Virus record (IMG/VR): IMGVR_UViG_3300005512_000066
Coordinates: 1 to 46,344 of that record
Source of the DNA: a virus
Taxonomy: Duplodnaviria; Caudoviricetes
Direction: 5' to 3' (one strand)
Length of the DNA: 46,344 bases
How positions within the stretch are numbered: the stretch's first letter is position 1; each line of letters opens with the position of its first letter. Under the pieces are notes generated by a model, which saw nothing but the letters and a program-made list of their open reading frames with translations, had not been told where the DNA came from and searched no databases. The translations under genes and the position numbers were made by a program. Of the stretch, positions 2,891 through 34,481 are shown one piece after another.

Positions 2891-3325
2891 ATGATGAACA
2901 CGAAAGATTTAATTCAATTGCTAAAGGATAAGTACAACACTACCATTGACGGTGTTGATTGTGTTGTCTTTCATCGTATGTATTTAGTTATAAATACGAT
3001 TAGAAATGAAATAAAACAGGAGTTATTAGATGATGAATACTCCAGAGGTGAAATAATGAATGAATGGGTAAGTATTAAAGATAAATTACCTAAATGTTAT
3101 GATTGCTCATACATTAAAGATGTTATACATAATTGCAGTGGAGACCTATTAGTTGTTACCAAAGATAAAGAAATTACGATAGCTGAATATAGTGAAGGTG
3201 ATGATTCTTGGTATTCAGAAGCACACGAGAGTATTGTTGATGTTACTCATTGGATGTATTTACCAAAACTACCTGTAGAAAAGACTACAAGTATAAGCAC
3301 CAATAGATTGAAAGGGATGGAATGA
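2891..3325 (+). CDS. DUF551-domain protein (possible internal start at 3056)
   Basis: MNEWVSIKDKLP...VTHWMYLPKLP is the DUF551 signature. GGAG precedes 2891 and GAGGTG precedes 3056. Confidence 0.75.
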   Translation: MMNTKDLIQLLKDKYNTTIDGVDCVVFHRMYLVINTIRNEIKQELLDDEYSRGEIMNEWVSIKDKLPKCYDCSYIKDVIHNCSGDLLVVTKDKEITIAEYSEGDDSWYSEAHESIVDVTHWMYLPKLPVEKTTSISTNRLKGME

Positions 3326-3609
3326 TGAACAGCTTAGAAGATATATTAAAACTAGATGGTATAGTCATAAGAAATATTCCTAAAACTACAAAGAGTATCT
3401 ATTATTCATACGACCCCAAGACAAATAAAAGGCTTAAAGAAACAATAGTTAAAACAAATGAGCTAGCAGGGTGGATTATAACTTTTGAACTTAGCCAAGA
3501 CGCAACGATTCGTTTCAATAAAAAGTGTAATGGGGTAGGAAAAACTATAGAAAAAGCATATCAAGATTATCTAAGTAAAGCTAAGAAATTAGCATTAGTT
3601 AAAGCATAA
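3322..3609 (+). CDS. Hypothetical protein
   Basis: 95-aa ORF with overlapping start/stop in the operon. Confidence 0.65.
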   Translation: MMNSLEDILKLDGIVIRNIPKTTKSIYYSYDPKTNKRLKETIVKTNELAGWIITFELSQDATIRFNKKCNGVGKTIEKAYQDYLSKAKKLALVKA

Positions 3610-18232: not shown

Positions 18233-19438
18233 TTAAGTTGAGCATTTAATAACTTGGAATGCTTCTGGTAATACTACCTGACCACCAACACGCTTCTTAA
18301 TTAAGAATCCAGTTTGGTCATATTCTGCATAACGCTCTGATAAACGCTGAACAGCAATACCACTTCTGTCTTTGATTCTATAACCACGTCTGAAGTCACC
18401 AATAACCACTGGAAACGCATTTGCAGCAACATCAGGCATCCCTTCGGGGTTAATAACTGGGCGTCCTAATAATGTAGCAGGGTCTCCAGCTTGGACAGGA
18501 GGTTGCCATAAATATTGTCCATCAGCATCTTTAGAATTTCTATACTTGCCTTCTAAAGTTGAGTTCATGGCAATCGTTGCATTTCTACGGTATGTCTTTT
18601 TCAACTTGTAATAAGCAGTAATTAAAGCAGTAACACCGTCATTTGATGCGTCAATAACATCAGCAGCAACACCAGAGTTAGTGACATTTGCTTGAACTAA
18701 AGCATTGGTCATAATACCCTGTGGACTGTGACTACCTGCACCAACAGCAAAAGCATCATCTTCAGCTTCTGCAATAGCATCACTGAACGCCATATTTAAC
18801 TCAGCCCAGATATCAGCTTCAGCGTCTTCCAGGGTGTTGTTATGAATTAAAGTTAACGCTTTAAGATCATGAATTGTCATAGTGTGACCACCGACATCCA
18901 AATCCTGAGCAGTAACAGCAACTCCAGTAGTACCCCATGCAACTGTTGGCTTGGCTAAAGCACCAAAGAAAACAGTATCACGGCCTGTAGGAGTAGCACC
19001 AACAACAGGACGTATTTCAGCCATGTCATAAGCGTTCATTATTAGCTCATTAGTGAAGTCGATTGGTACTAAAAAACCACCTTCAGCATCGGATGATTCT
19101 TGTAAAGCGCGTTTTTCATCCTGTGACATAACTTCACTTGAGGTTTCACCATTACCATAGCGACAGAACTTTAAGAAAGCTGATTTTCTAAGCTCTGCTT
19201 TTTCATCAACTTCTTTACCGCTATCATCAAGTGAAGGGCGTTTACTAGCAACCACTAACTCATCATAGCGTTTTGTAAGCTGGTCAATATCAGCATTAGC
19301 TTTATCAATAGCTTCTTGAATTAAAGGGTCATTCTTACCTTTAGCCGCTTCTTCAACTTTGCGATCAACATAAGAACGCATTTCCTCGGTTGTTTTCTTG
19401 ATTGAATCAAGAACAACATTCATATTATCTTCAGGCAT
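18233..19438 (-). CDS. Major capsid protein, HK97 family
   Basis: GGFLVP, KDADGQYLWQP, TLLGRPV, VIGDF and KRVGG motifs, with an N-terminal coiled-coil delta domain. Confidence 0.96.
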   Translation of the reverse strand: MPEDNMNVVLDSIKKTTEEMRSYVDRKVEEAAKGKNDPLIQEAIDKANADIDQLTKRYDELVVASKRPSLDDSGKEVDEKAELRKSAFLKFCRYGNGETSSEVMSQDEKRALQESSDAEGGFLVPIDFTNELIMNAYDMAEIRPVVGATPTGRDTVFFGALAKPTVAWGTTGVAVTAQDLDVGGHTMTIHDLKALTLIHNNTLEDAEADIWAELNMAFSDAIAEAEDDAFAVGAGSHSPQGIMTNALVQANVTNSGVAADVIDASNDGVTALITAYYKLKKTYRRNATIAMNSTLEGKYRNSKDADGQYLWQPPVQAGDPATLLGRPVINPEGMPDVAANAFPVVIGDFRRGYRIKDRSGIAVQRLSERYAEYDQTGFLIKKRVGGQVVLPEAFQVIKCST

Positions 19439-19449
19439 TTTAAAATCTC

Positions 19450-20493
19450 CTATTTTAAACTTGCATTAAATGTATCAAAATATTCTGCTAAACTTTCGGC
19501 TCCGTCTGAAGTTGGTATAACTTCGGGGAGTGAACGTTTTAATAAACCTTCTATTCGAGTGGATTCAGCAGAACTTAATCCGGCTCGTAATTCATCACAA
19601 AGTGTTATAACGGCTTTGCTTCTTATTTGTTCATGTGCTTTCTGTACTTCATCTGGTAAATCTATTAATTTAGATTTATTGGTTATACAAGAACCTCTTT
19701 TTAATTGCTTCAATTCATCAACGGTTAAGCTAGTTGTTAAAGCAATAGTTTCTAATTCTTTACCATCAAGGTATTTTCTAAACTCGTTAATTAGCTCATT
19801 ATCTGAACGTGCATCGGTAGGATATAAATCCTTTGCTAAATTTAAATATGATGCCCTAAAAGCATCAATAGTATCTTCAGTCATTTTTAAAGGTTCAGTG
19901 TTATCATCCAACCAATAAATATCTTCTAAAGTTTCAGCTAATGAGTTTATAAGTCTATATCTCATATTGTGCATTTCACTAATCTTGTCGGTCTCATTAA
20001 AATCAGTAGACCTTGCACCAGTAATTAAACACGCTTCACCCCCTGGAAATACAACAGGGCTTATCTCCCCTAATTGAACTTCGGTTATAACTTGTATACC
20101 ATTTTCAAACTTATCTTTTACAGTTCTAAAACCGAAGGAAAGAGCATTGATTGCCCCGCCTTTAATCAAGTTGAAAGTGTCTTTGGCATTTTCAACTTCC
20201 ATAACTAATTGCGCTCTAACAAACACTCCATGATCATCTTCTTTTATTTCTAAAAGTTTGCCAATAGGCTTTTCAATATCGTGGTTATAAAGCACTTTAA
20301 TTTTATCTGTGCGATTCTGAATAGTCTTTTTAAAAGAACCCCTTTGGAATCGTGAGTTATAACTATCAACCTGTTCCCAGACAGCTATATAACCTTCTAT
20401 AATACCTTTTTCGCTTTCATCAGCTCTTAATTCACGGACTAAATTTAGATGCTGGAAGTCCTGTTCATTTTTTCGTAGTTCTAATTTAGTCAT
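19450..20493 (-). CDS. Prohead protease (HK97 family) with long C-terminal extension
   Basis: IEGYIAVW, LYNHD..PIG, LSFGF and EISPVVFP motifs. AAGGTG RBS favours the ATG at 20493. Confidence 0.92.
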   Translation of the reverse strand: MTKLELRKNEQDFQHLNLVRELRADESEKGIIEGYIAVWEQVDSYNSRFQRGSFKKTIQNRTDKIKVLYNHDIEKPIGKLLEIKEDDHGVFVRAQLVMEVENAKDTFNLIKGGAINALSFGFRTVKDKFENGIQVITEVQLGEISPVVFPGGEACLITGARSTDFNETDKISEMHNMRYRLINSLAETLEDIYWLDDNTEPLKMTEDTIDAFRASYLNLAKDLYPTDARSDNELINEFRKYLDGKELETIALTTSLTVDELKQLKRGSCITNKSKLIDLPDEVQKAHEQIRSKAVITLCDELRAGLSSAESTRIEGLLKRSLPEVIPTSDGAESLAEYFDTFNASLK

Positions 20494-20509
20494 ATAAATC
20501 ACCTTGTTT

Positions 20510-20568
20510 AAATTAATTAAACACTGTTTAATTTTAACACAAAAAATTAATTAAACACTGTTTAATTT
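20510..20568. promoter_or_regulatory. Tandem palindromic operator-like repeats flanking an extended -10 element
   Basis: AATTAAACAcTGTTTAATT at 20515-20533 and 20549-20567, with TGtTAAAAT on the minus strand between them. Confidence 0.6.
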
Positions 20569-20582
20569 ATCTGTAAAAAATT

Positions 20583-22556
20583 TTATTCCTCGTAAAACGA
20601 AAGGAAGCACTTACAATTAATTCTATCTTCCGCTGAAACATGAGGGTCACTTGGGAACCTTGGTCCTATTGATCCAGATTGAATACTAAAGCGGTCATCA
20701 ATCCCAACCACTTCCCCATCCCTTGCCGAGTGTATTTCTCGTATCTCAAACCCACCAGTATTCCATTCTTTCTTCTGAGCACCTGCAACTTTACCGGATA
20801 CCATTTGACCAATAGATGCAGCTGATCCTACTTCTGTTCTAGCAATTCTTAAAGCTCTTTCAGGACTGAATACCCCTGTATCTTCGAGAGCTTGTCTTAA
20901 TTCTTCAACAGTCCAGTTGTTTTCATAGGCTTCTCTAACCTGTTCAAGTACAACCTTGACCGTTGCTTCTTGTATTAGTGACTTTTCAGCTAAAATATAA
21001 CTAGCGTCATTAATAAATTCATCAAGCAACAAATCTTCTTCTTCACCTCGTGTTTCAAAATCTGGTTTATTTCCACGTTGGTCAACTATAACCGTTTTAC
21101 TAAAATCAGCAGCGACACTTAAAGCAGTATTCTGTATTAAATCTTGTAGTTCAGTATCATATTTTAAAATTGAAGTATTAACCCTTTCTTGAGTTATACT
21201 TACATGCTCATCAAGATCAATATTTTTTAAAACTTCTTTTTGCTGCTTCTTTAGGAAATCTGAAAAAGCATTTTTAACTGGTCCTTCAGCTATTTTATCT
21301 CGTCTTTTAGCTTCACTTTTAGCAGACCTTCTCTCGTTAGGTATTAACTTCCATTGCTTTCTTTCTTCGGTTGTTTGAGGTTCAGACATCCCAGATTGTT
21401 TTAAGCCATTGAACGGCTTATCCCACCCATCATACTCTTCTAAGCCCATTTCAAATTTAGTATTCAACTGAGATACAGGTACACCCATATCATAATAAGA
21501 TTTAGCCGTATCTGCTTTACTTTGCTCATTATCTTTTAATGCTTCAACATTGGTATAGTCTGCTGCAATATAATAGCCGTTTTCCAGTACATCTTTAAAA
21601 GAGTTATTAAACTGTGTCGCCATTCCATTAATTAATGGTATTAACGTTGTCTCCCAGAATACTCTTAGTGCCCAGCTAAAATTATTATAAGTGCTTGCTG
21701 CTTCACTTCCTCCTAGCTGAGGTGGGATGCCAAATATAATAAATATCTCTGACATATTGAATTTTCTACTTTCAATAAAGTCAACTTCAGCAGGGGTTAA
21801 ACTTAATCTGGTATATTTAGCACCGCTGCCTAAAACTAATGGTTGCCTTCTTGAGAATGTAGATGAAAACTTACTCATTATTCTAGCCATTATAGACTCT
21901 GATTGTTGTTTATCTAAATCTCTATCAAAAGTAAAGACACTATCAACAACACCTCTATTCTGCATAGTACCAGTGTTCCAATTTTGCTGAGCATTATCTA
22001 AATCAACTGATTTACTTGCAGCTTCTAATGGAGAAATACCCATTATTGGATTGGCTGGATTAGTCAAATTGAAATGAATAATTTCATCATTTTCAAAATC
22101 ACTACTCTTTGAATAGATGCCATTCTTTTTGAGCACATAACCCTCTGTGAAAGTTAAATTATCAGTACTTTCTTTTGGTTTAATTCTATCAGGACTTATT
22201 GGGTACAGTTCTGCTAGTTGTCGGCTATCAGTAATTTTATATAAATAAGCATTTCCGCTTAATTGTAACCACTGGTGTAATAGCTCATAGAATTGTAATC
22301 TGTTTAAAAATGGGTGAGGATTTAACAGTAATTTAGTGAGTGGATGTCCGTATTCAATTTCATTATCTGAGTTCTTGACTACAAAAGGAACCGTTGAAGC
22401 ATTTCTAGCAATTAACGAAACAGCTTTATGTACCCATCCACAGGATACATAGCCGTCAGTGACAGCTTTATCGAGTGTCCATGTAGTCCACTGGGTATCT
22501 GCCGTGGATACATAAGCAGTTTCTACACTCTTTGCTAAATTACGAATATTGAACAT
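20583..22556 (-). CDS. Portal protein (HK97 family) fused to Mu gpF/SPP1 gp7-like head morphogenesis domain
   Basis: HPLTKLL..P, SGNAY, GISPLEAA and FGIPPQL portal motifs. C-terminal RALRIARTE...K.W...R..H...INCKC. Confidence 0.92.
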   Translation of the reverse strand: MFNIRNLAKSVETAYVSTADTQWTTWTLDKAVTDGYVSCGWVHKAVSLIARNASTVPFVVKNSDNEIEYGHPLTKLLLNPHPFLNRLQFYELLHQWLQLSGNAYLYKITDSRQLAELYPISPDRIKPKESTDNLTFTEGYVLKKNGIYSKSSDFENDEIIHFNLTNPANPIMGISPLEAASKSVDLDNAQQNWNTGTMQNRGVVDSVFTFDRDLDKQQSESIMARIMSKFSSTFSRRQPLVLGSGAKYTRLSLTPAEVDFIESRKFNMSEIFIIFGIPPQLGGSEAASTYNNFSWALRVFWETTLIPLINGMATQFNNSFKDVLENGYYIAADYTNVEALKDNEQSKADTAKSYYDMGVPVSQLNTKFEMGLEEYDGWDKPFNGLKQSGMSEPQTTEERKQWKLIPNERRSAKSEAKRRDKIAEGPVKNAFSDFLKKQQKEVLKNIDLDEHVSITQERVNTSILKYDTELQDLIQNTALSVAADFSKTVIVDQRGNKPDFETRGEEEDLLLDEFINDASYILAEKSLIQEATVKVVLEQVREAYENNWTVEELRQALEDTGVFSPERALRIARTEVGSAASIGQMVSGKVAGAQKKEWNTGGFEIREIHSARDGEVVGIDDRFSIQSGSIGPRFPSDPHVSAEDRINCKCFLSFYEE

Positions 22557-22694
22557 AATTTTTAATTAAAATAACCTATTGTTTATTATATACTGTTTTT
22601 AGTCAAAATAAAACTTTTTATCTAATCCCTTTGTACTCAAAACTATAATGATTTAAATCACCCTCAATTCTTTCAGCACCACCCAGTATACTCA

Positions 22695-23012
22695 TCACCC
22701 TCTCGATTCATCTTGTGTTTTCGGTTGCCATTCAATATGAATGTGTGTATCCTCTAAGACGACATCAAATCCACTTGGTAGAATGTCTTTAATTAAATTC
22801 ACGAACTCGTTAATTAAATCTATACCCCATCTTCTAATATCTACTGCACAACCAACATAATGTAGACTACCCCACCCATGTTTCCCGTCTAATGCTGACG
22901 TAACAATCAAATTCTTACCTTTGCTTTCAAACAGAGGTAAAATAGTGTAGAGAGCGTCCCACATTTTAATATGCAAATTCCTTACATCTACTCCATCATT
23001 AATGATTATCAT
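22695..23012 (-). CDS. Endolysin, peptidase M15 family
   Basis: VTS..DGKH...SLHYVGCAVDIR...HIHIEW zinc peptidase motifs. Confidence 0.8.
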   Translation of the reverse strand: MIIINDGVDVRNLHIKMWDALYTILPLFESKGKNLIVTSALDGKHGWGSLHYVGCAVDIRRWGIDLINEFVNLIKDILPSGFDVVLEDTHIHIEWQPKTQDESRG

Positions 23013-23015
23013 AAG

Positions 23016-23198
23016 TCACCTCAAGACAGGTAAATGATACTTATTTTCTGCCGAATTTCTGGCACATACGGCATCAAACCAGTCATTAAACAAACCAAGA
23101 GCAAGCTTTTTATCTCCCATATCTGTTTTAGAGATAACTGTTAATCTTCCAAACTTCTTACCAATTAAATCAGTTGTTTGCTTTGAACTTAAACTCAT
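23016..23198 (-). pseudogene. Internally deleted HNH/AP2 endonuclease relic
   Basis: N-terminal DLIGKKFGRLTVI is joined directly to the AP2 C-terminus LGLF....DAVCAR.SAE. Confidence 0.6.
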
Positions 23199-23632
23199 CA
23201 GTGATGTCCCTTACCGATAAAATCTAAGAAGTGTTCTAACCCATCCATGAACAACACCCATCCTGCAAGTATTGTTGTTGCTATCCACTTGATTTTGCGC
23301 ACCACCCATATCCAAGGTTTAAGCGCTATACCAATCTCATTGACCCCATCTGTTATAGGCTTAATATCGTTCTTAATCTCAAGCAGTTGTTCTGTGTTCA
23401 CATCTACTCTACCCCCTAATGCCCTAAGTTCAAGATTACTTTCAGACATATCTTTCTGTAGTAAAACTATGTTTCGCTCTGTGTTTGCTATACTTATCTC
23501 ATTCTTAGCTTGTCTGTCTTCAAATGACTTCTGTCTTAACTCAAATGATTCCTGTCTTTCTGCCATATTTATAAACATAGTTTTCAACTCGCAAGTTTTA
23601 TGGTCTTCTAAACCACAACTCATTTCTTCCAT
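23198..23632 (-). CDS. Coiled-coil protein with C-terminal TM helix; holin-like candidate
   Basis: Heptad region followed by KWIATTILAGWVLF; lies upstream of the endolysin. Confidence 0.55.
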   Translation of the reverse strand: MEEMSCGLEDHKTCELKTMFINMAERQESFELRQKSFEDRQAKNEISIANTERNIVLLQKDMSESNLELRALGGRVDVNTEQLLEIKNDIKPITDGVNEIGIALKPWIWVVRKIKWIATTILAGWVLFMDGLEHFLDFIGKGHH

Positions 23633-23967
23633 CTTGGGCCTCCGATTCTGACAGCCCAGTACATGGCGTATCGTTTAAAATAAGGAACACCATCTTGTTC
23701 CATGAGATAAAGAAAAGCATCGTCTGCTTTTTTTCTCTTGCCTTCTTTTAAGAAGTATAAGTAGTCATGAATGACAGAAGCTTTCCTCCACTTTCCTTTT
23801 GTCGGCGTCGCAAACCAGTGAAATAATGATGGTATAGAGGCAAAGTCTGTAATAAAACCAGCAGGAACAGTAATCTCCCCATACGGCGGCACCATAGCAA
23901 TAAAATCCTCTAACAATTCCCAAGTCAAGTCCTTATTTGACTTAACCATTAGCTCGGTCTTATACAT
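23620..23967 (-). CDS. DUF1353 domain protein
   Basis: ITVPAGFITDFASIP...ASVIHDYLY...RKKADDAF...MYWAVRIGG. Confidence 0.9.
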   Translation of the reverse strand: MYKTELMVKSNKDLTWELLEDFIAMVPPYGEITVPAGFITDFASIPSLFHWFATPTKGKWRKASVIHDYLYFLKEGKRKKADDAFLYLMEQDGVPYFKRYAMYWAVRIGGPRWKK

Positions 23968-24832
23968 AAAAAACCTCCTGCATGGTATAATTACTTTTAT
24001 TTTGGAGTGTGCTATGGGCAGTAAGTTTGTCGATATAACAGGAATGACTTTTAATTATCTTACTGTCGTTGGCATAGGCCCTAAAAAACACGGCAGAAGA
24101 GATACTCAGTGGATTTGTGAATGCAGATGCGGCACAACCACTGTCGCCGAAAGCCATGAACTCAAAAGTGGCCATAAAAAGTCCTGTGGTTGCTATAACC
24201 TCAAAAAAATCAAAGAAAGAAATACAAAACATGGCTATGCTCAAAGAGAAAATTGCCATCCTGATTATTCTGTTTGGCGCGGGATGATAAATAGATGCCA
24301 TGGTTACAGCAAAATGTCTAAGGCCTATAAAGACAGAGGCATTAAGGTCTGTGATAGATGGAGAGAGTCTTTTGGCGATTTTATTCAAGACCTTGGATGC
24401 AGACCATCTCCTGAACATACTCTTGATAGAATCGACGTTAACGGCAACTATACCCCTGAAAATTGCCGCTGGGCCACCAACCAAGAGCAAGCTTACAATA
24501 AAACTAACACAAGAATTATAGAGTTTAATGGGAAATCCATGAATATTCTTGAATGGTCCAAGGAAACCAGCATCCCTACAGAGGTTATTTCTTCCAGGGT
24601 TGACAAAAGATGGAGTCCACAAAAAATTCTTACCACCCCAGTAAGAAAGCAAGCAGTACACATAGAATACCAAGGAGAAACAAAAACACTTGGAGAATGG
24701 ATTAAGTATCTTAACCTCCCTGAAAACAGAACTAGGTCCAGATATAGGCGTGGATGGCCCACTGATAAACTGTTTGCTGCTCATTCGTTTGGACGTTGGA
24801 ATCCTCATACCAATTAAATCGCCCTTATACAT
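23960..24832 (-). other. Antisense open frame spanning the HNH gene, coupled at both ends
   Basis: 290 stop-free codons. The start overlaps an upstream stop (TAATG) and the stop overlaps the DUF1353 start (ATGTATAA). The product does not resemble a known protein. Confidence 0.45.
24014..24817 (+). mobile_element. Free-standing HNH homing endonuclease gene, antisense to the late operon
   Basis: DITGMTFNYLTV, WICECRCG, SCGC, RGIKVCDRW and LDRIDVNGNYTPENCRWAT motifs. Has its own TGgTATAAT (23983-23991) and GGAG RBS. Confidence 0.9.
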
Positions 24833-24921
24833 TACAACACCACCATTGTCATCAAGCCCAATGTTGCCATTATTCCTAGGATGGATAATGTTGCCAATAT
24901 GATTAATTGTTTATCGTCCAT
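24832..24921 (-). CDS. 29-aa single-TM peptide (MDDKQLIILATLSILGIMATLGLMTMVVL)
   Basis: Read manually; TAATG overlaps at both ends. Confidence 0.55.
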   Translation of the reverse strand: MDDKQLIILATLSILGIMATLGLMTMVVL

Positions 24922-25598
24922 TATTGCACTACCACAGGTTCTGGTTGATTAACTACAGTCGGTGTAGCTGTCTGGTTCTGCTGTGAGTTGTTATCTTGAT
25001 TAACTAGCGAGTTATCATCTTGTGATGAATTATTGTCGTTGCTATCTACTTGCGAGTTATCATTATTACTATCAGCTTGGTTATTGTCGTTACTGTTGTA
25101 TGAATCAGTATTAGCTACGTCATTGTCTTGGTTATTATCATTGCTTGAAGTGTTGTTATCTGCTGTAGACTTAGAAGTAGTAGCACTCATATCATTAGAG
25201 TTGTTCTCACCGTTAATGATAGAGTTATTATGTACCTCTGTATTGTTACCACCTGCTGCATGGAAAGCATCATCCATAATTCTGATAGCTGACACCCCGA
25301 TAACAGCCGAAGTGAAAGCGTTGGTTAGTGGTGGTATAGCCTCAACAATAACATCATTGGTTCCTCTAACCCTCATTCCAGTAACTTTCGGTAAATCTCT
25401 TGGGTCGGTATAGCTAATTATTGCACTGCCACAGCCTTTTGTGCAGTCTATATTTAGTGTGTCTTTGTGTGATTGCAACGCCTGATACTGTAATGATGCT
25501 ATAGCCACACTGGTATTGGATAATTGTGTGAGCTCTGCTTGGTTTGCACATCCCGCCAGGGATAATATAAGAATACTACCAGCCAATTTGAAAATCAT
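24921..25598 (-). CDS. Lipoprotein with Asn/Asp/Ser/Gln-rich low-complexity C-terminus
   Basis: GAGGT RBS and MIFKLAGSILILSLAG-C lipobox; the true start is probably 25598. Confidence 0.75.
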   Translation of the reverse strand: MIFKLAGSILILSLAGCANQAELTQLSNTSVAIASLQYQALQSHKDTLNIDCTKGCGSAIISYTDPRDLPKVTGMRVRGTNDVIVEAIPPLTNAFTSAVIGVSAIRIMDDAFHAAGGNNTEVHNNSIINGENNSNDMSATTSKSTADNNTSSNDNNQDNDVANTDSYNSNDNNQADSNNDNSQVDSNDNNSSQDDNSLVNQDNNSQQNQTATPTVVNQPEPVVVQ

Positions 25599-26223
25599 AA
25601 TCTTGTACCTCTTGTACTGTTGTAAGAGCGTTAATAGCATTTTCATGTGCTTCGTGCTGTGTTGATACTGCATCAATATGAGCTTCCAGAGCATCTTCTA
25701 TAGCTTCCAGTGTTGCCTTATTTGCTGTAGCCCATCCATTCTTAGCTTTGAATCGCTGAGTAGCTCCAGACTTTCTACCCATCAGGTTAAGTGCCTGGGT
25801 AATCCTAAATTGGTCTTCACGTTTCGTAGATATATCCAAGGATGCTACCGTGATACCAGCTTGTTCTTTTTCTAGTGCTAAGTTGCTTAATTGCTCTAGT
25901 TTAGACTCTTTAGCTTTGGCTAATTGTTCTGCTCTGTAAGCTGCTTCTTTCTCAGCTTTAGTGCCGTTCTCGTCTGTGGTGAACATATCCTGTTCTACCC
26001 AGTTAAAGACAGTGTTACCTTGAGCATCTACCGTAGTACCATTCTGGACAACTACTTTAGCATCGCTACTTGGAGTAGGCTTAGGTGTCTCAAGAATAGG
26101 TGTTATGTTCAAAGCATCATAAGTATCCTGTGTGAATACTTTAGGTATTGATACGTTAGAAAATCTCTTGCGCACTTGGCCTTGAGTGAGTATTTCCTGT
26201 GTGTCGTTAGTTAAGAATTTCAT
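25576..26223 (-). CDS. Fibre assembly/accessory protein with DUF4376-like C-terminus
   Basis: RFSNVSIP N-terminus; KEQAGITV....ST.REDQ..I...E..H...INAL. Confidence 0.7.
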   Translation of the reverse strand: MKFLTNDTQEILTQGQVRKRFSNVSIPKVFTQDTYDALNITPILETPKPTPSSDAKVVVQNGTTVDAQGNTVFNWVEQDMFTTDENGTKAEKEAAYRAEQLAKAKESKLEQLSNLALEKEQAGITVASLDISTKREDQFRITQALNLMGRKSGATQRFKAKNGWATANKATLEAIEDALEAHIDAVSTQHEAHENAINALTTVQEVQDYDFQIGW

Positions 26224-32321: not shown

Positions 32322-34481
32322 TTATCCTACAAATACATCAGTGCTATTTCTTATAATCGGCTCCAGAGAATAGCGTAATGCATCAATACAGTTTGAAACA
32401 ACCACCCCATTGGCAAGAGAAAAACACCCGTCACCGGGAACCGTCACGCAATAAGTTTCTTTTTCTTGCATTCCCTTTTGCTGAACATCCTTTACCGCAA
32501 TATATTTTTTTGGCGTATTTATTTGATTTAAATATTTCGCCACAGAACTCACATGTTTTTTTAATGTCATCGACTCCTGAATCCCTTCTCCATTTGGATT
32601 TACATTTGTTTGAGCAAAATACATTGGTTTTATCGACTTGGGCATAAAATGTTTCTCTGCATTGCTTGCAATTTCTGTATTCCCTGGCAAATAATTTGTC
32701 TTTGTGTTTTTGATAATGTTGCTTATGCCATTCGTGGCCATCATTTGATTTATGCCACTCTCTGCATTTGTCTTGATTCTTAGCAAGATTAATTCTTGCA
32801 GCGTCCGGATTGTTTGCATGATATAATTTTGTATGATATGCGATATGTTCGCCAGCTGTGAGTATAATAAGATTTTCAATCTCATTATTATCCGCATTAT
32901 GATCTCGGTGATGAATATGGAATCCTTCTGGTATTTCTCCGTGATGATATTCCCATACTTTTCTATGTATTCTGTCGCATCCGTAATTAGTCCCAAATGA
33001 GTAGTATTTTTCTCCTTCATGTTTTGTGTATATTCTTCCATTAAATTCCTGTTTTGTCCCTGAAATAACATTGATTTGCATAATAATTGCCCTTTTAAAT
33101 CCTTTGCTTGAACCCATTGACCATCTTTAGTCAGGAATTCATGGTCTTCGGTCACGCTTATTATTGTATCATCATCAAGTATTAAATCAAGTAACTTATC
33201 GCATCTAACTACCCCACCATTGTAGTAAAACTTATTGCTCCCGTCATAACCTCGTATAAATCCAGTTTTTGGTATCTCATCAAAACGCATTAATTTGTCA
33301 TTAACAATTACTTCAGTGTCCCCACTAAAACAATGATTGTTAGCATCTATAATTTGGGGAAGTATATCACCAGTTAGCCGGTCAACTTTATAAGAATATA
33401 ATCGAGTTTCTTTTATCGTTTCTTCGCACCTGGGATGGATAAATATTTTTTTATATGATCGCAAATGTGAAATACCGTCTTCAACACTGCCAGCCCACTT
33501 TTTAACTGGCCTGACATTTAACTTGCCTTTATTATTTAAATGGCTTATAGATTCTGGTCTTGCTGAATCTGCTCTGATAGTGTGATTGACTATATCTGGG
33601 ATTTTCTTAATAAAAAATTCTGTTGTATCATCTAATTCTAATCCAACTTTACCTGCATCATAATCAATATAAAGATTATCATTAAATACCCAACATCTGA
33701 CCACTGTTGTGGGGTCTTGAGAAAAACCGAAGTCCATTCCATAGTAGGGTCCATCCCAATGATCACTTGATTTAAATTCTTTTATTTCAACTTTACCATG
33801 TAGGACTTGAGCATTAGAGTTTTCTAAGTACGCTCCTTCCCAGATATGGCTATAAGTATTAGGATCTAATCTTTCCTGCTCTCTTTTTCGTAGTTTTTCT
33901 AACCCTGTAGGAAAAAATGGATTGTCGTACCAATTAACTTCGGCTATAGCTAAATCTTTTGGTGGTTTAATCCTGAATCGTTTATCAACTGGTGACTCTT
34001 TTGTTCTAGGGTTCCATATCACCCAGCATTCTGATTTAGGTTGTCTGAAAATAGTTGCTTCTAAATCTAACCATGCTTGCTCTGGTACATCTTCTGCTTC
34101 TTCAATAATAGTTAAATCAATATTTGCTAAAGACTTAACTGCTGATGTATTTCTATGTAGGCCTCTAAAAATAAATTCAGTGCCATTAGAACCTCTTAAA
34201 TAGTCAACTCCAACATTATAATGATCTTTGAGAAAATCATAAGAGTCAATTGCTGCTTTTAATTCAGCATGGAAAGATTCTTTGATTGAAGTCTGGAACT
34301 CTCTAACACATAAAATTCTGATAGGTTCAGCGTATCCATGAACAGCTGCCATTAAAGCGAAAGAGAAAGACTTTCCTGAGCCCCTACCACCGAAAGCAGC
34401 TCTGTATTGAACATCTCCCCTTGGTATTACTAAAATATCAGATATTTTAGCAGGGAAATCAATCTCGGTCTTTTCTTCCAT
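32322..34481 (-). CDS. terL: Terminase large subunit (PBSX family) containing an intein
   Basis: GGRGSGKS Walker A, IIEEAE Walker B, WNP, GMDFGFSQDP, ADSARPE and NH|CIDALRY. Confidence 0.95.
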   Translation of the reverse strand: MEEKTEIDFPAKISDILVIPRGDVQYRAAFGGRGSGKSFSFALMAAVHGYAEPIRILCVREFQTSIKESFHAELKAAIDSYDFLKDHYNVGVDYLRGSNGTEFIFRGLHRNTSAVKSLANIDLTIIEEAEDVPEQAWLDLEATIFRQPKSECWVIWNPRTKESPVDKRFRIKPPKDLAIAEVNWYDNPFFPTGLEKLRKREQERLDPNTYSHIWEGAYLENSNAQVLHGKVEIKEFKSSDHWDGPYYGMDFGFSQDPTTVVRCWVFNDNLYIDYDAGKVGLELDDTTEFFIKKIPDIVNHTIRADSARPESISHLNNKGKLNVRPVKKWAGSVEDGISHLRSYKKIFIHPRCEETIKETRLYSYKVDRLTGDILPQIIDANNHCFSGDTEVIVNDKLMRFDEIPKTGFIRGYDGSNKFYYNGGVVRCDKLLDLILDDDTIISVTEDHEFLTKDGQWVQAKDLKGQLLCKSMLFQGQNRNLMEEYTQNMKEKNTTHLGLITDATEYIEKYGNIITEKYQKDSIFITEIIMRIIMRLKILLYSQLANISHIIQNYIMQTIRTLQELILLRIKTNAESGINQMMATNGISNIIKNTKTNYLPGNTEIASNAEKHFMPKSIKPMYFAQTNVNPNGEGIQESMTLKKHVSSVAKYLNQINTPKKYIAVKDVQQKGMQEKETYCVTVPGDGCFSLANGVVVSNCIDALRYSLEPIIRNSTDVFVG
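32391..33332 (-). mobile_element. Intein (314 aa) in the TerL nuclease domain
   Basis: Block A CFSGDT, block B VTEDHEF, block F TYCVTVPGDGCF, block G NGVVVSN, +1 Cys. Removal restores DANNHCIDALRY. Confidence 0.92.
32431..33081 (-). CDS. HNH homing endonuclease nested in the -1 frame inside the intein
   Basis: IHRKVWEYHHGEIPEGFHIHHRDHNADNNEIENL (HNH_3 type) plus two CxxC...FCSxxC zinc fingers. AAAGGG lies upstream of the ATG at 33081. Confidence 0.88.
   Translation of the reverse strand: MQINVISGTKQEFNGRIYTKHEGEKYYSFGTNYGCDRIHRKVWEYHHGEIPEGFHIHHRDHNADNNEIENLIILTAGEHIAYHTKLYHANNPDAARINLAKNQDKCREWHKSNDGHEWHKQHYQKHKDKLFAREYRNCKQCRETFYAQVDKTNVFCSNKCKSKWRRDSGVDDIKKTCEFCGEIFKSNKYAKKIYCGKGCSAKGNARKRNLLRDGSR

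Follow-up and report, generated by a model that had tools for sequence, protein, structure and literature searches.

An antisense HNH endonuclease gene in a phage late operon and the open frame that may carry ribosomes across it

The locus

The window, meaning the whole stretch of DNA analysed (46,344 nucleotides), is a complete 46-kb virus record whose minus strand carries the capsid, portal, tape-measure, tail, and terminase genes. A lone plus-strand gene (24014-24817) breaks the minus run, between tail-fibre-related genes and a DUF1353 gene. Its 267-aa product falls in an HNH endonuclease family (phrog_374, E 1e-63; phrog_3377, E 3e-56). A GGAG Shine-Dalgarno sequence (24004-24007, plus) serves the ATG, and an alternative TTG start lies at 24002.

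The DUF1353 gene (23620-23967, minus; PF07087, E 1e-26; phrog_1158) is the first behind the insert, and its 3' end overlaps the next gene (23198-23632, minus). The further downstream late genes (18233-23632, minus) comprise a 144-aa gene with a weak phrog_1193 match, small ORFs, a portal-MuF fusion, and the major capsid gene; strand and spacing suggest that they share one transcript with the insert. The portal and the Mu F-like domain are fused in a single 657-aa ORF (20583-22556, minus). Separately, a 60-aa ORF (23016-23198, minus) resembles an internally deleted HNH remnant, its N-terminus similar to phrog_374 and its C-terminus to phrog_13470.

A short distance upstream of the insert is a predicted lipoprotein-like gene (24921-25601, minus) with a long Asn/Asp/Ser low-complexity tail and no convincing family. 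An unannotated 29-codon hydrophobic ORF (24832-24921, minus), without a family match in PHROG and Pfam searches, is joined by TAATG overlaps both to this preceding gene and to the long antisense ORF described below. It may encode a small membrane peptide, or may itself be a relay.

The HNH protein has three recognizable parts: an N-terminal CxC...CGC module; a D-R-x-D-x4-Y-x3-N-C core; and two C-terminal beta-hairpin/helix repeats. Core residues agree with a consensus drawn from 61 aligned homologues, every one of which has R in place of the first H of H-N-H. The AlphaFold model is confident (pLDDT 91.5), with no Foldseek match at E <= 0.001, and the protein has no Pfam, NCBIfam, or PDB sequence match. 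Among its Atlas neighbours, NUMOD families occur in 26-45% of members. Nuclease identity is thus predicted, from family annotation, and the element is best described as a putative free-standing HNH homing-endonuclease cassette. The interval 22500-26000 gave no Rfam match at E <= 1, and no intein profile matched, placing the cassette outside an intron or intein. (A group I or II intron was rejected on that Rfam result and because the insert is nearly all coding.) Homologue searches returned no close relative free of the cassette, and this HNH gene lies within 2 kb in 0/79 distant DUF1353 loci.

An extended -10 box, TGGTATAAT (23983-23991, plus), is the predicted HNH-gene promoter. It was found by sequence scan; a two-hexamer promoter scan missed it because it has no -35 match. 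It stands back to back with the DUF1353 ribosome-binding site, the AGGAGG on the minus strand and the box on the plus strand falling within 18 nt at the left end of the cassette. A -10-like box precedes 16/31 antisense homologues versus 8/77 co-oriented ones at GC >= 0.5, and 24/42 versus 63/189 over all GC.

The open frame

A minus-strand ORF of 290 codons (23960-24832; ATG start, TAA stop), the candidate relay, runs antisense to the HNH gene in codon-aligned register, and the plus-strand ORF (24002/24014-24817) is nested inside it. The frame is open because the HNH gene contains no TTA, CTA, or TCA codon. Its body has 11 Leu codons (CTT 7, CTC 3, CTG 1) and 17 Ser codons, none of them from this set, despite genome usage in which TTA and CTA make up 65% of Leu and TCA 28% of Ser. 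Under the usage of the 46 other genes (13,250 codons), the probability of zero TTA, CTA, and TCA is 3.3e-8, and the longest run free of these codons in those genes is 93 codons. The remaining two minus frames contain 14 and 23 stops. Codon usage of 81 co-oriented homologues with similar GC3 gives P = 3.9e-5, and each of these homologues has at least two of the excluded codons. The minus ORF has a single TTA, at Leu6, and this codon mirrors the HNH stop.

Both ends of the ORF abut genes of the operon. The ATG overlaps the stop of the 29-codon ORF (24921-24832) as TAATG, and the TAA (23960-23962) lies inside the DUF1353 start. An initial annotation, made from the sequence alone, had described a plus-strand HNH gene within the minus-strand late operon, a codon-aligned antisense frame open for 290 codons, Leu codons restricted to CTT, CTC, and CTG, a start on the upstream stop at 24832, and an end overlapping the DUF1353 ATG. 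All of this holds on recomputation, the 3' overlap measuring 8 nt.

The junctions

The first seven codons of the minus ORF (24812-24832) read MYKGDLI and, by homologue comparison, resemble an orphaned DUF1353 start. The current DUF1353 start, MYKTELM (23947-23967, minus), contains the stop of the minus ORF and is preceded by AGGAGG (23974-23979, minus) at a spacing of 6 nt from the ATG. The two ends share 16/21 nt, with a local-alignment score of 14; 0.4% of mismatched junction pairs reach 13. The closest DUF1353 homologue, P0122 (66% identity), begins MYKGKLI, matching the orphan at 6/7 residues and the current start at 4/7. Among 64 DUF1353 homologues, 11 have I at position 7 and none has M there. 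The family match of the orphan start ends at residue 8, which is V in 43/64 homologues and G in the minus ORF.

These comparisons suggest an insertion after codon 7 of DUF1353, yielding an 865-nt cassette (23947-24811), one base off frame, that brought a second copy of the start. The HNH stop would then be borrowed from the old DUF1353 Leu6 codon. The new start may have been recoded or may simply have drifted, both being compatible with the sequence; another gene of the genome also starts MYK. The initial annotation had noted the resemblance of the two ends and the AGGAGG, which is borne out, and had proposed an insertion just after the DUF1353 start with a rebuilt start behind it. The greater similarity of the orphan to P0122 favours that insertion point. 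Rebuilding of the start is not a general feature of the homologous loci described below: a duplicated start with score >= 13 was found in 2/20 loci with an open antisense frame (this one and L134) and in 0/34 with a closed frame, so junction duplication was rejected as a general rule. At L134 (HNH gene 2980-3525), an N-terminus of about 25 codons is duplicated, apparently recoded, on either side of an antisense HNH gene with an open frame; the duplication has a BLOSUM score of 92, and no mismatched pair reaches 30.

Homologous loci

To place the open frame in its family, 644 HNH loci were examined and 375 kept, including the present one. The rest were dropped: 134 ran off the contig, 61 lacked a profile match, 14 were shorter than 130 aa, 5 lacked a start, 3 exceeded 400 aa, and 52 were near-duplicates. 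Neighbour strands came from a purpose-built composition-based caller, which misread one neighbour of the present locus, so some orientation labels are wrong.

The codon-aligned frame is open in 17/42 loci antisense to both neighbours versus 7/189 co-oriented loci (Fisher 1.6e-9; odds ratio 22.6 and P 3.5e-8 after stratification by GC3). Built on the co-oriented loci, a model of GC3 and A3 expects 0.99 open of the 42 and 3.0 of the 189. Openness therefore tracks orientation, the relation that the initial annotation had put forward for testing. In the 25 closed antisense loci, stop-mirror codons total 168 versus 167.6 expected; the trait is thus all-or-none rather than a drift in composition. 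A stricter filter gave 11/28 versus 2/112. Bacterial genomes contributed 122 loci, of which 26 were usable and 0 antisense to both neighbours; they serve as controls only, and their addition gave 17/42 versus 8/205. PHROG matches confirm at least one neighbour at 12/17 open and 18/25 closed antisense loci, testing the called strand only. The PHROG-named neighbours of the antisense open loci are capsid, tail, baseplate, connector, and lysis genes.

The trait is far from universal. Stops occur in the codon-aligned frame of 25/42 antisense homologues. Of these, four come to 84-98% open, and a fifth has another antisense frame entirely free of stops. In the other 20/42, no single frame exceeds 71% open, and a relay is therefore not required everywhere. 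Only 1/11 antisense loci with GC3 < 0.4 is open. The host comparison has low power: Sphingopyxis (open), Zavarzinella (97% open), one Clostridia (closed), and one Pleurocapsa (closed). In GenBank phages, four antisense queries found no match with 80% coverage, and the match regions examined (8/8) are co-oriented, with 1-8 stop-mirror codons.

Two loci depart from the common layout. L148 (342-1037) has an antisense HNH gene whose open host-strand frame lies in a different register, not codon-aligned. At L030 (1990-3723, minus), the open antisense frame spans 578 codons from stop to stop, overshooting the HNH start by about 1 kb, and may represent an in-frame insertion within a structural gene.

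Coupling to the flanking genes was scored at both ends. At the 3' end, coupling meant that the first stop past the HNH start falls within -11 to +12 nt of an in-frame downstream start, scored where the downstream operon gene was called. It was found at 14/21 open versus 4/34 closed loci (P 5.5e-5), and the other two antisense frames of the open loci were coupled at 1/21 and 5/21. This test is independent of codon choice, because the 3' flank lies outside the HNH codons. At the 5' end, a start in frame adjoining the upstream stop was found at 13/21 open versus 6/33 closed loci (P 1.5e-3).

A FastTree phylogeny of 166 rows took in every homologue of 160 aa or more that had a minus neighbour or an open frame, together with 70 random co-oriented ones. 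Its 36 open rows need 28 changes, against a shuffled mean of 32.7, and 8/500 shuffles are as low. Starred branches force at least six changes, which to that extent rejects a single origin of the open frames. An independent-pairs test (five pairs, median p 0.5) was not significant. The scatter of open frames on this weakly resolved tree would reflect repeated origin or loss.

Operon-strand composition

At 76 fourfold sites of the HNH gene, the operon strand reads A28 C2 G27 T19, unlike the neutral sites of the genome's late genes, which have no G-over-C skew. Operon-strand CC/UC dinucleotides across the HNH gene number 101, versus 117+-5 in 3000 synonymous recodings. C-over-G third-position skew relative to neighbours is greater in antisense than in co-oriented homologues (P 1.5e-4), and is present in antisense homologues whether open or closed. 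According to PMC13323073, CC/UC dinucleotides are the signal for Rho in E. coli, and genes whose transcription outruns ribosomes are protected by their purine content. The depletion and the skew fit avoidance of Rho, and could also be produced by donor codon usage or by selection on first codon positions. RNA folds at three junction regions are unremarkable (z 0.26, -0.02, -1.09).

Could the frame be open by chance, or because strand-biased mutation or the codon usage of a donor happened to leave it so? Purine-ending codons are depleted generally in antisense-oriented homologues: averaged over all 42 antisense loci, depletion of CGG, GAG, and AGG equals or exceeds that of TCA, CTA, and TTA. 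Likewise, the seven open co-oriented homologues all have GC3 >= 0.59. This explanation is nonetheless largely refuted, and we give it next to no weight: composition predicts a single open locus among the 42, closed antisense loci lack the codon deficit, coupling at the ends is independent of codon usage, and the neutral sites of the late genes lack the requisite skew.

The antisense product

The protein encoded by the minus ORF belongs to no PHROG, Pfam, or NCBIfam family. Its model is poor (pLDDT 50, pTM 0.23), with one hydrophobic helix (residues 45-65) at moderate model confidence, and its best Atlas score is 0.80. Used alone, it found no homologue in a word-indexed search or among GenBank phages. 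A profile of 28 antisense frames matched 15,278 predicted-protein cluster representatives, 13,524 of them at E <= 1e-10; these are proteins without DNA context, chance-open and partial frames included. The matched clusters probably represent this nuclease family read from the antisense strand. Most of the 150 best matches are ORFs in their own right, limited to the mirror of the nuclease: 136 have at most 20 extra N-terminal residues, and 141 at most 60 extra C-terminal residues. None of ten that were looked up is named. Ala is enriched at the C-termini of these best proteins (31/150), an enrichment that overlap geometry could cause.

An antisense protein with its own job, such as a nuclease inhibitor or a membrane accessory of the lysis module, would account for the gene-like first codon positions, which are the 76 sites above (P 0.09 versus native first positions, 6e-15 versus neutral sites), and for the modelled helix. 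We regard this as unlikely. The model scores are low, the antisense alignment has only 3 invariant columns and 19-20% mean column identity, and the origins are repeated and scattered. Third-position identity relative to expectation is 1.08 for open pairs and 1.06 for co-oriented pairs, a comparison of low power with divergence near saturation. The product is probably non-functional, as its model also suggests.

The frame might instead be the relic of an in-frame, ShiLan-like insertion or of a splicing element, or a +1 frameshift might fuse it to DUF1353. In-frame HNH insertions are known (PMC11855218), the minus ORF starts with the old DUF1353 codons, and the insert is a single base off frame. 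We consider this very unlikely, given the absence of Rfam and intein matches in and around the cassette, the mixed frames in which coupled homologues end relative to the next gene, and the scarcity of fusions among the best 150 antisense proteins. A possible shift site does exist: the DUF1353 Shine-Dalgarno is followed directly by a T6 run (23968-23979, minus), where a +1 slip would fuse the minus ORF to DUF1353. This arrangement resembles the RF2 shift site, although no slow codon follows.

A proposed relay

The layout, the codon exclusion, the coupling at both ends, and the recurrence in antisense homologues are what an explanation must accommodate. We propose that the minus frame is real and selected, and that it acts as a relay protecting downstream expression from polarity, with ribosome hand-off as a secondary role; we put the probability of this reading at roughly 0.55. 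The initial annotation had likewise seen a filler ORF that keeps ribosomes on the insert and averts polarity on lysis and head genes; the homologue comparisons bear out what that reading predicts, although coupling or RNA protection could yield the same pattern.

The proposed sequence of events is as follows. An HNH cassette would have inserted backwards just inside the DUF1353 start, after codon 7, duplicating the N-terminus (and perhaps thereby removing the cut site from the invaded allele). The nuclease would be expressed early from its own extended -10 promoter. Later, the late transcript crossing the cassette would otherwise have a ribosome-free stretch of 0.85 kb. Instead, ribosomes that terminate at the upstream gene would restart at TAATG, cover the 865-nt insert, stop at the rebuilt DUF1353 start, and be handed on to DUF1353. 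By covering the RNA, they would keep Rho-type termination from cutting the late transcript short. In this scheme the relay would be translated, Rho would exert the selection, and the product itself would be junk. Polarity is attributed to Rho loading on untranslated RNA, and some ORFs are held to serve only for ribosome delivery (PMC12548453).

Two features sit awkwardly with the relay. DUF1353 has its own strong Shine-Dalgarno, and the 8-nt overlap is outside the coupling optimum of -4 to +3 (PMC12548453). A third consideration concerns the operon as a whole. Many phage late operons use antitermination; if this one does, polarity would be weakened.

A related alternative holds that the frame is translated and selected, but for hand-off itself (termination-reinitiation) or for protection from RNase, rather than against Rho. 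TAATG overlaps link the genes of the local operon in a chain, the stops at 14/21 open loci appear to lie closer to the next start than coverage would need, and the ORFs of mycobacterial MIRU elements are proposed to act by coupling (PMC12548453). The same two features of the DUF1353 start, its independent Shine-Dalgarno and the overlap, also tell against hand-off, and hand-off does not predict the operon-strand depletion of CC/UC. We find it doubtful as the main function, though it retains some weight.

Relation to known systems

Each ingredient of the locus has precedents. One is the MIRU of mycobacteria, a mobile insert at a start codon with an ORF coupled to the next gene, an arrangement suggested to limit the harm to that gene's expression (PMC12548453). 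The present insert likewise lies at a start codon, with an ORF coupled through a TAATG 5' overlap and an 8-nt 3' overlap. However, MIRUs are described there as short, multi-copy, non-coding mycobacterial repeats, whereas this is an 865-nt coding cassette with one match in the genome, and its 290-codon relay mirrors a functional-type gene, so that both strands are constrained.

Some inteins carry LAGLIDADG or VSR-like endonucleases in antisense orientation, with the host-strand frame kept open (bioRxiv 10.1101/2025.01.02.630785). As described in that report, the open frame is forced, lying within the host protein and being spliced out. Here, in contrast, the frame forms an ORF of its own, complete with start and stop; it is not in register with DUF1353 and lacks a splicing domain. 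Together with the lack of an intein profile match, these properties reject identity as an intein.

The ShiLan domain is a hidden HNH domain on the same strand, fused in frame within a methylase and without splicing (PMC11855218). It shares with the present locus an HNH in one frame and a nonsense-looking open frame in another, again without splicing. Here the HNH gene is on the opposite strand and the open frame is a separate ORF, so a ShiLan-type insertion was rejected; the main text of PMC11855218 does not contain the words 'antisense', 'reverse', or 'opposite'. Four HNH homologues in the survey (L217, L243, L532, and L095) have a stop-free alternative frame on the same strand (+2), and are possibly ShiLan-like in-frame insertions.

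The seg and mob endonuclease genes of T4 lie between host genes and must spare the expression of their neighbours; segD is antisense, and mobE is coupled by UAAUGA, which serves the translation of the endonuclease itself (PMC2988022). That source, in the text available, mentions no open host-strand frame across segD. A search of open-access titles and abstracts, with most subscription papers and supplements outside its scope, found no free-standing antisense endonuclease bridged by its own coupled ORF. This suggests that the combination is new, as far as those titles and abstracts go, although its ingredients are known.

A tentative generalization is that relay-bearing antisense HNH cassettes form a widespread, repeatedly evolved selfish class, with the host-strand frame kept only for translation. 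The left end of such a cassette would serve both strands, supplying the nuclease gene with a promoter and, in the opposite direction, the host gene with its ribosome-binding site and start. The relay would offer one explanation of how an essential late operon can tolerate a reversed free-standing endonuclease and still express its downstream genes; what is selected would be translation as such, and not the protein made. If so, 'hypothetical protein' clusters numbering in the thousands would be mirror-image products that are selected yet carry no meaning, and the cassettes would put polarity to a natural test and give new genes a place to arise. For annotation there is a more immediate warning: the mirror-frame profile matches 15,278 protein clusters, some of which may be selected and others open by chance.

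The genome contains a second dual-coded HNH cassette. The terminase large-subunit gene (32322-34481, minus) has an intein-like insert (PF14890, E 2.6e-6, under the curated cut-off), and within that insert lies a separate 228-aa HNH_3 gene (32431-33117, minus), on the same strand in another frame. Its arrangement resembles the out-of-frame architecture of bioRxiv 10.1101/2025.01.02.630785, differing in that the endonuclease is of the HNH_3 type.
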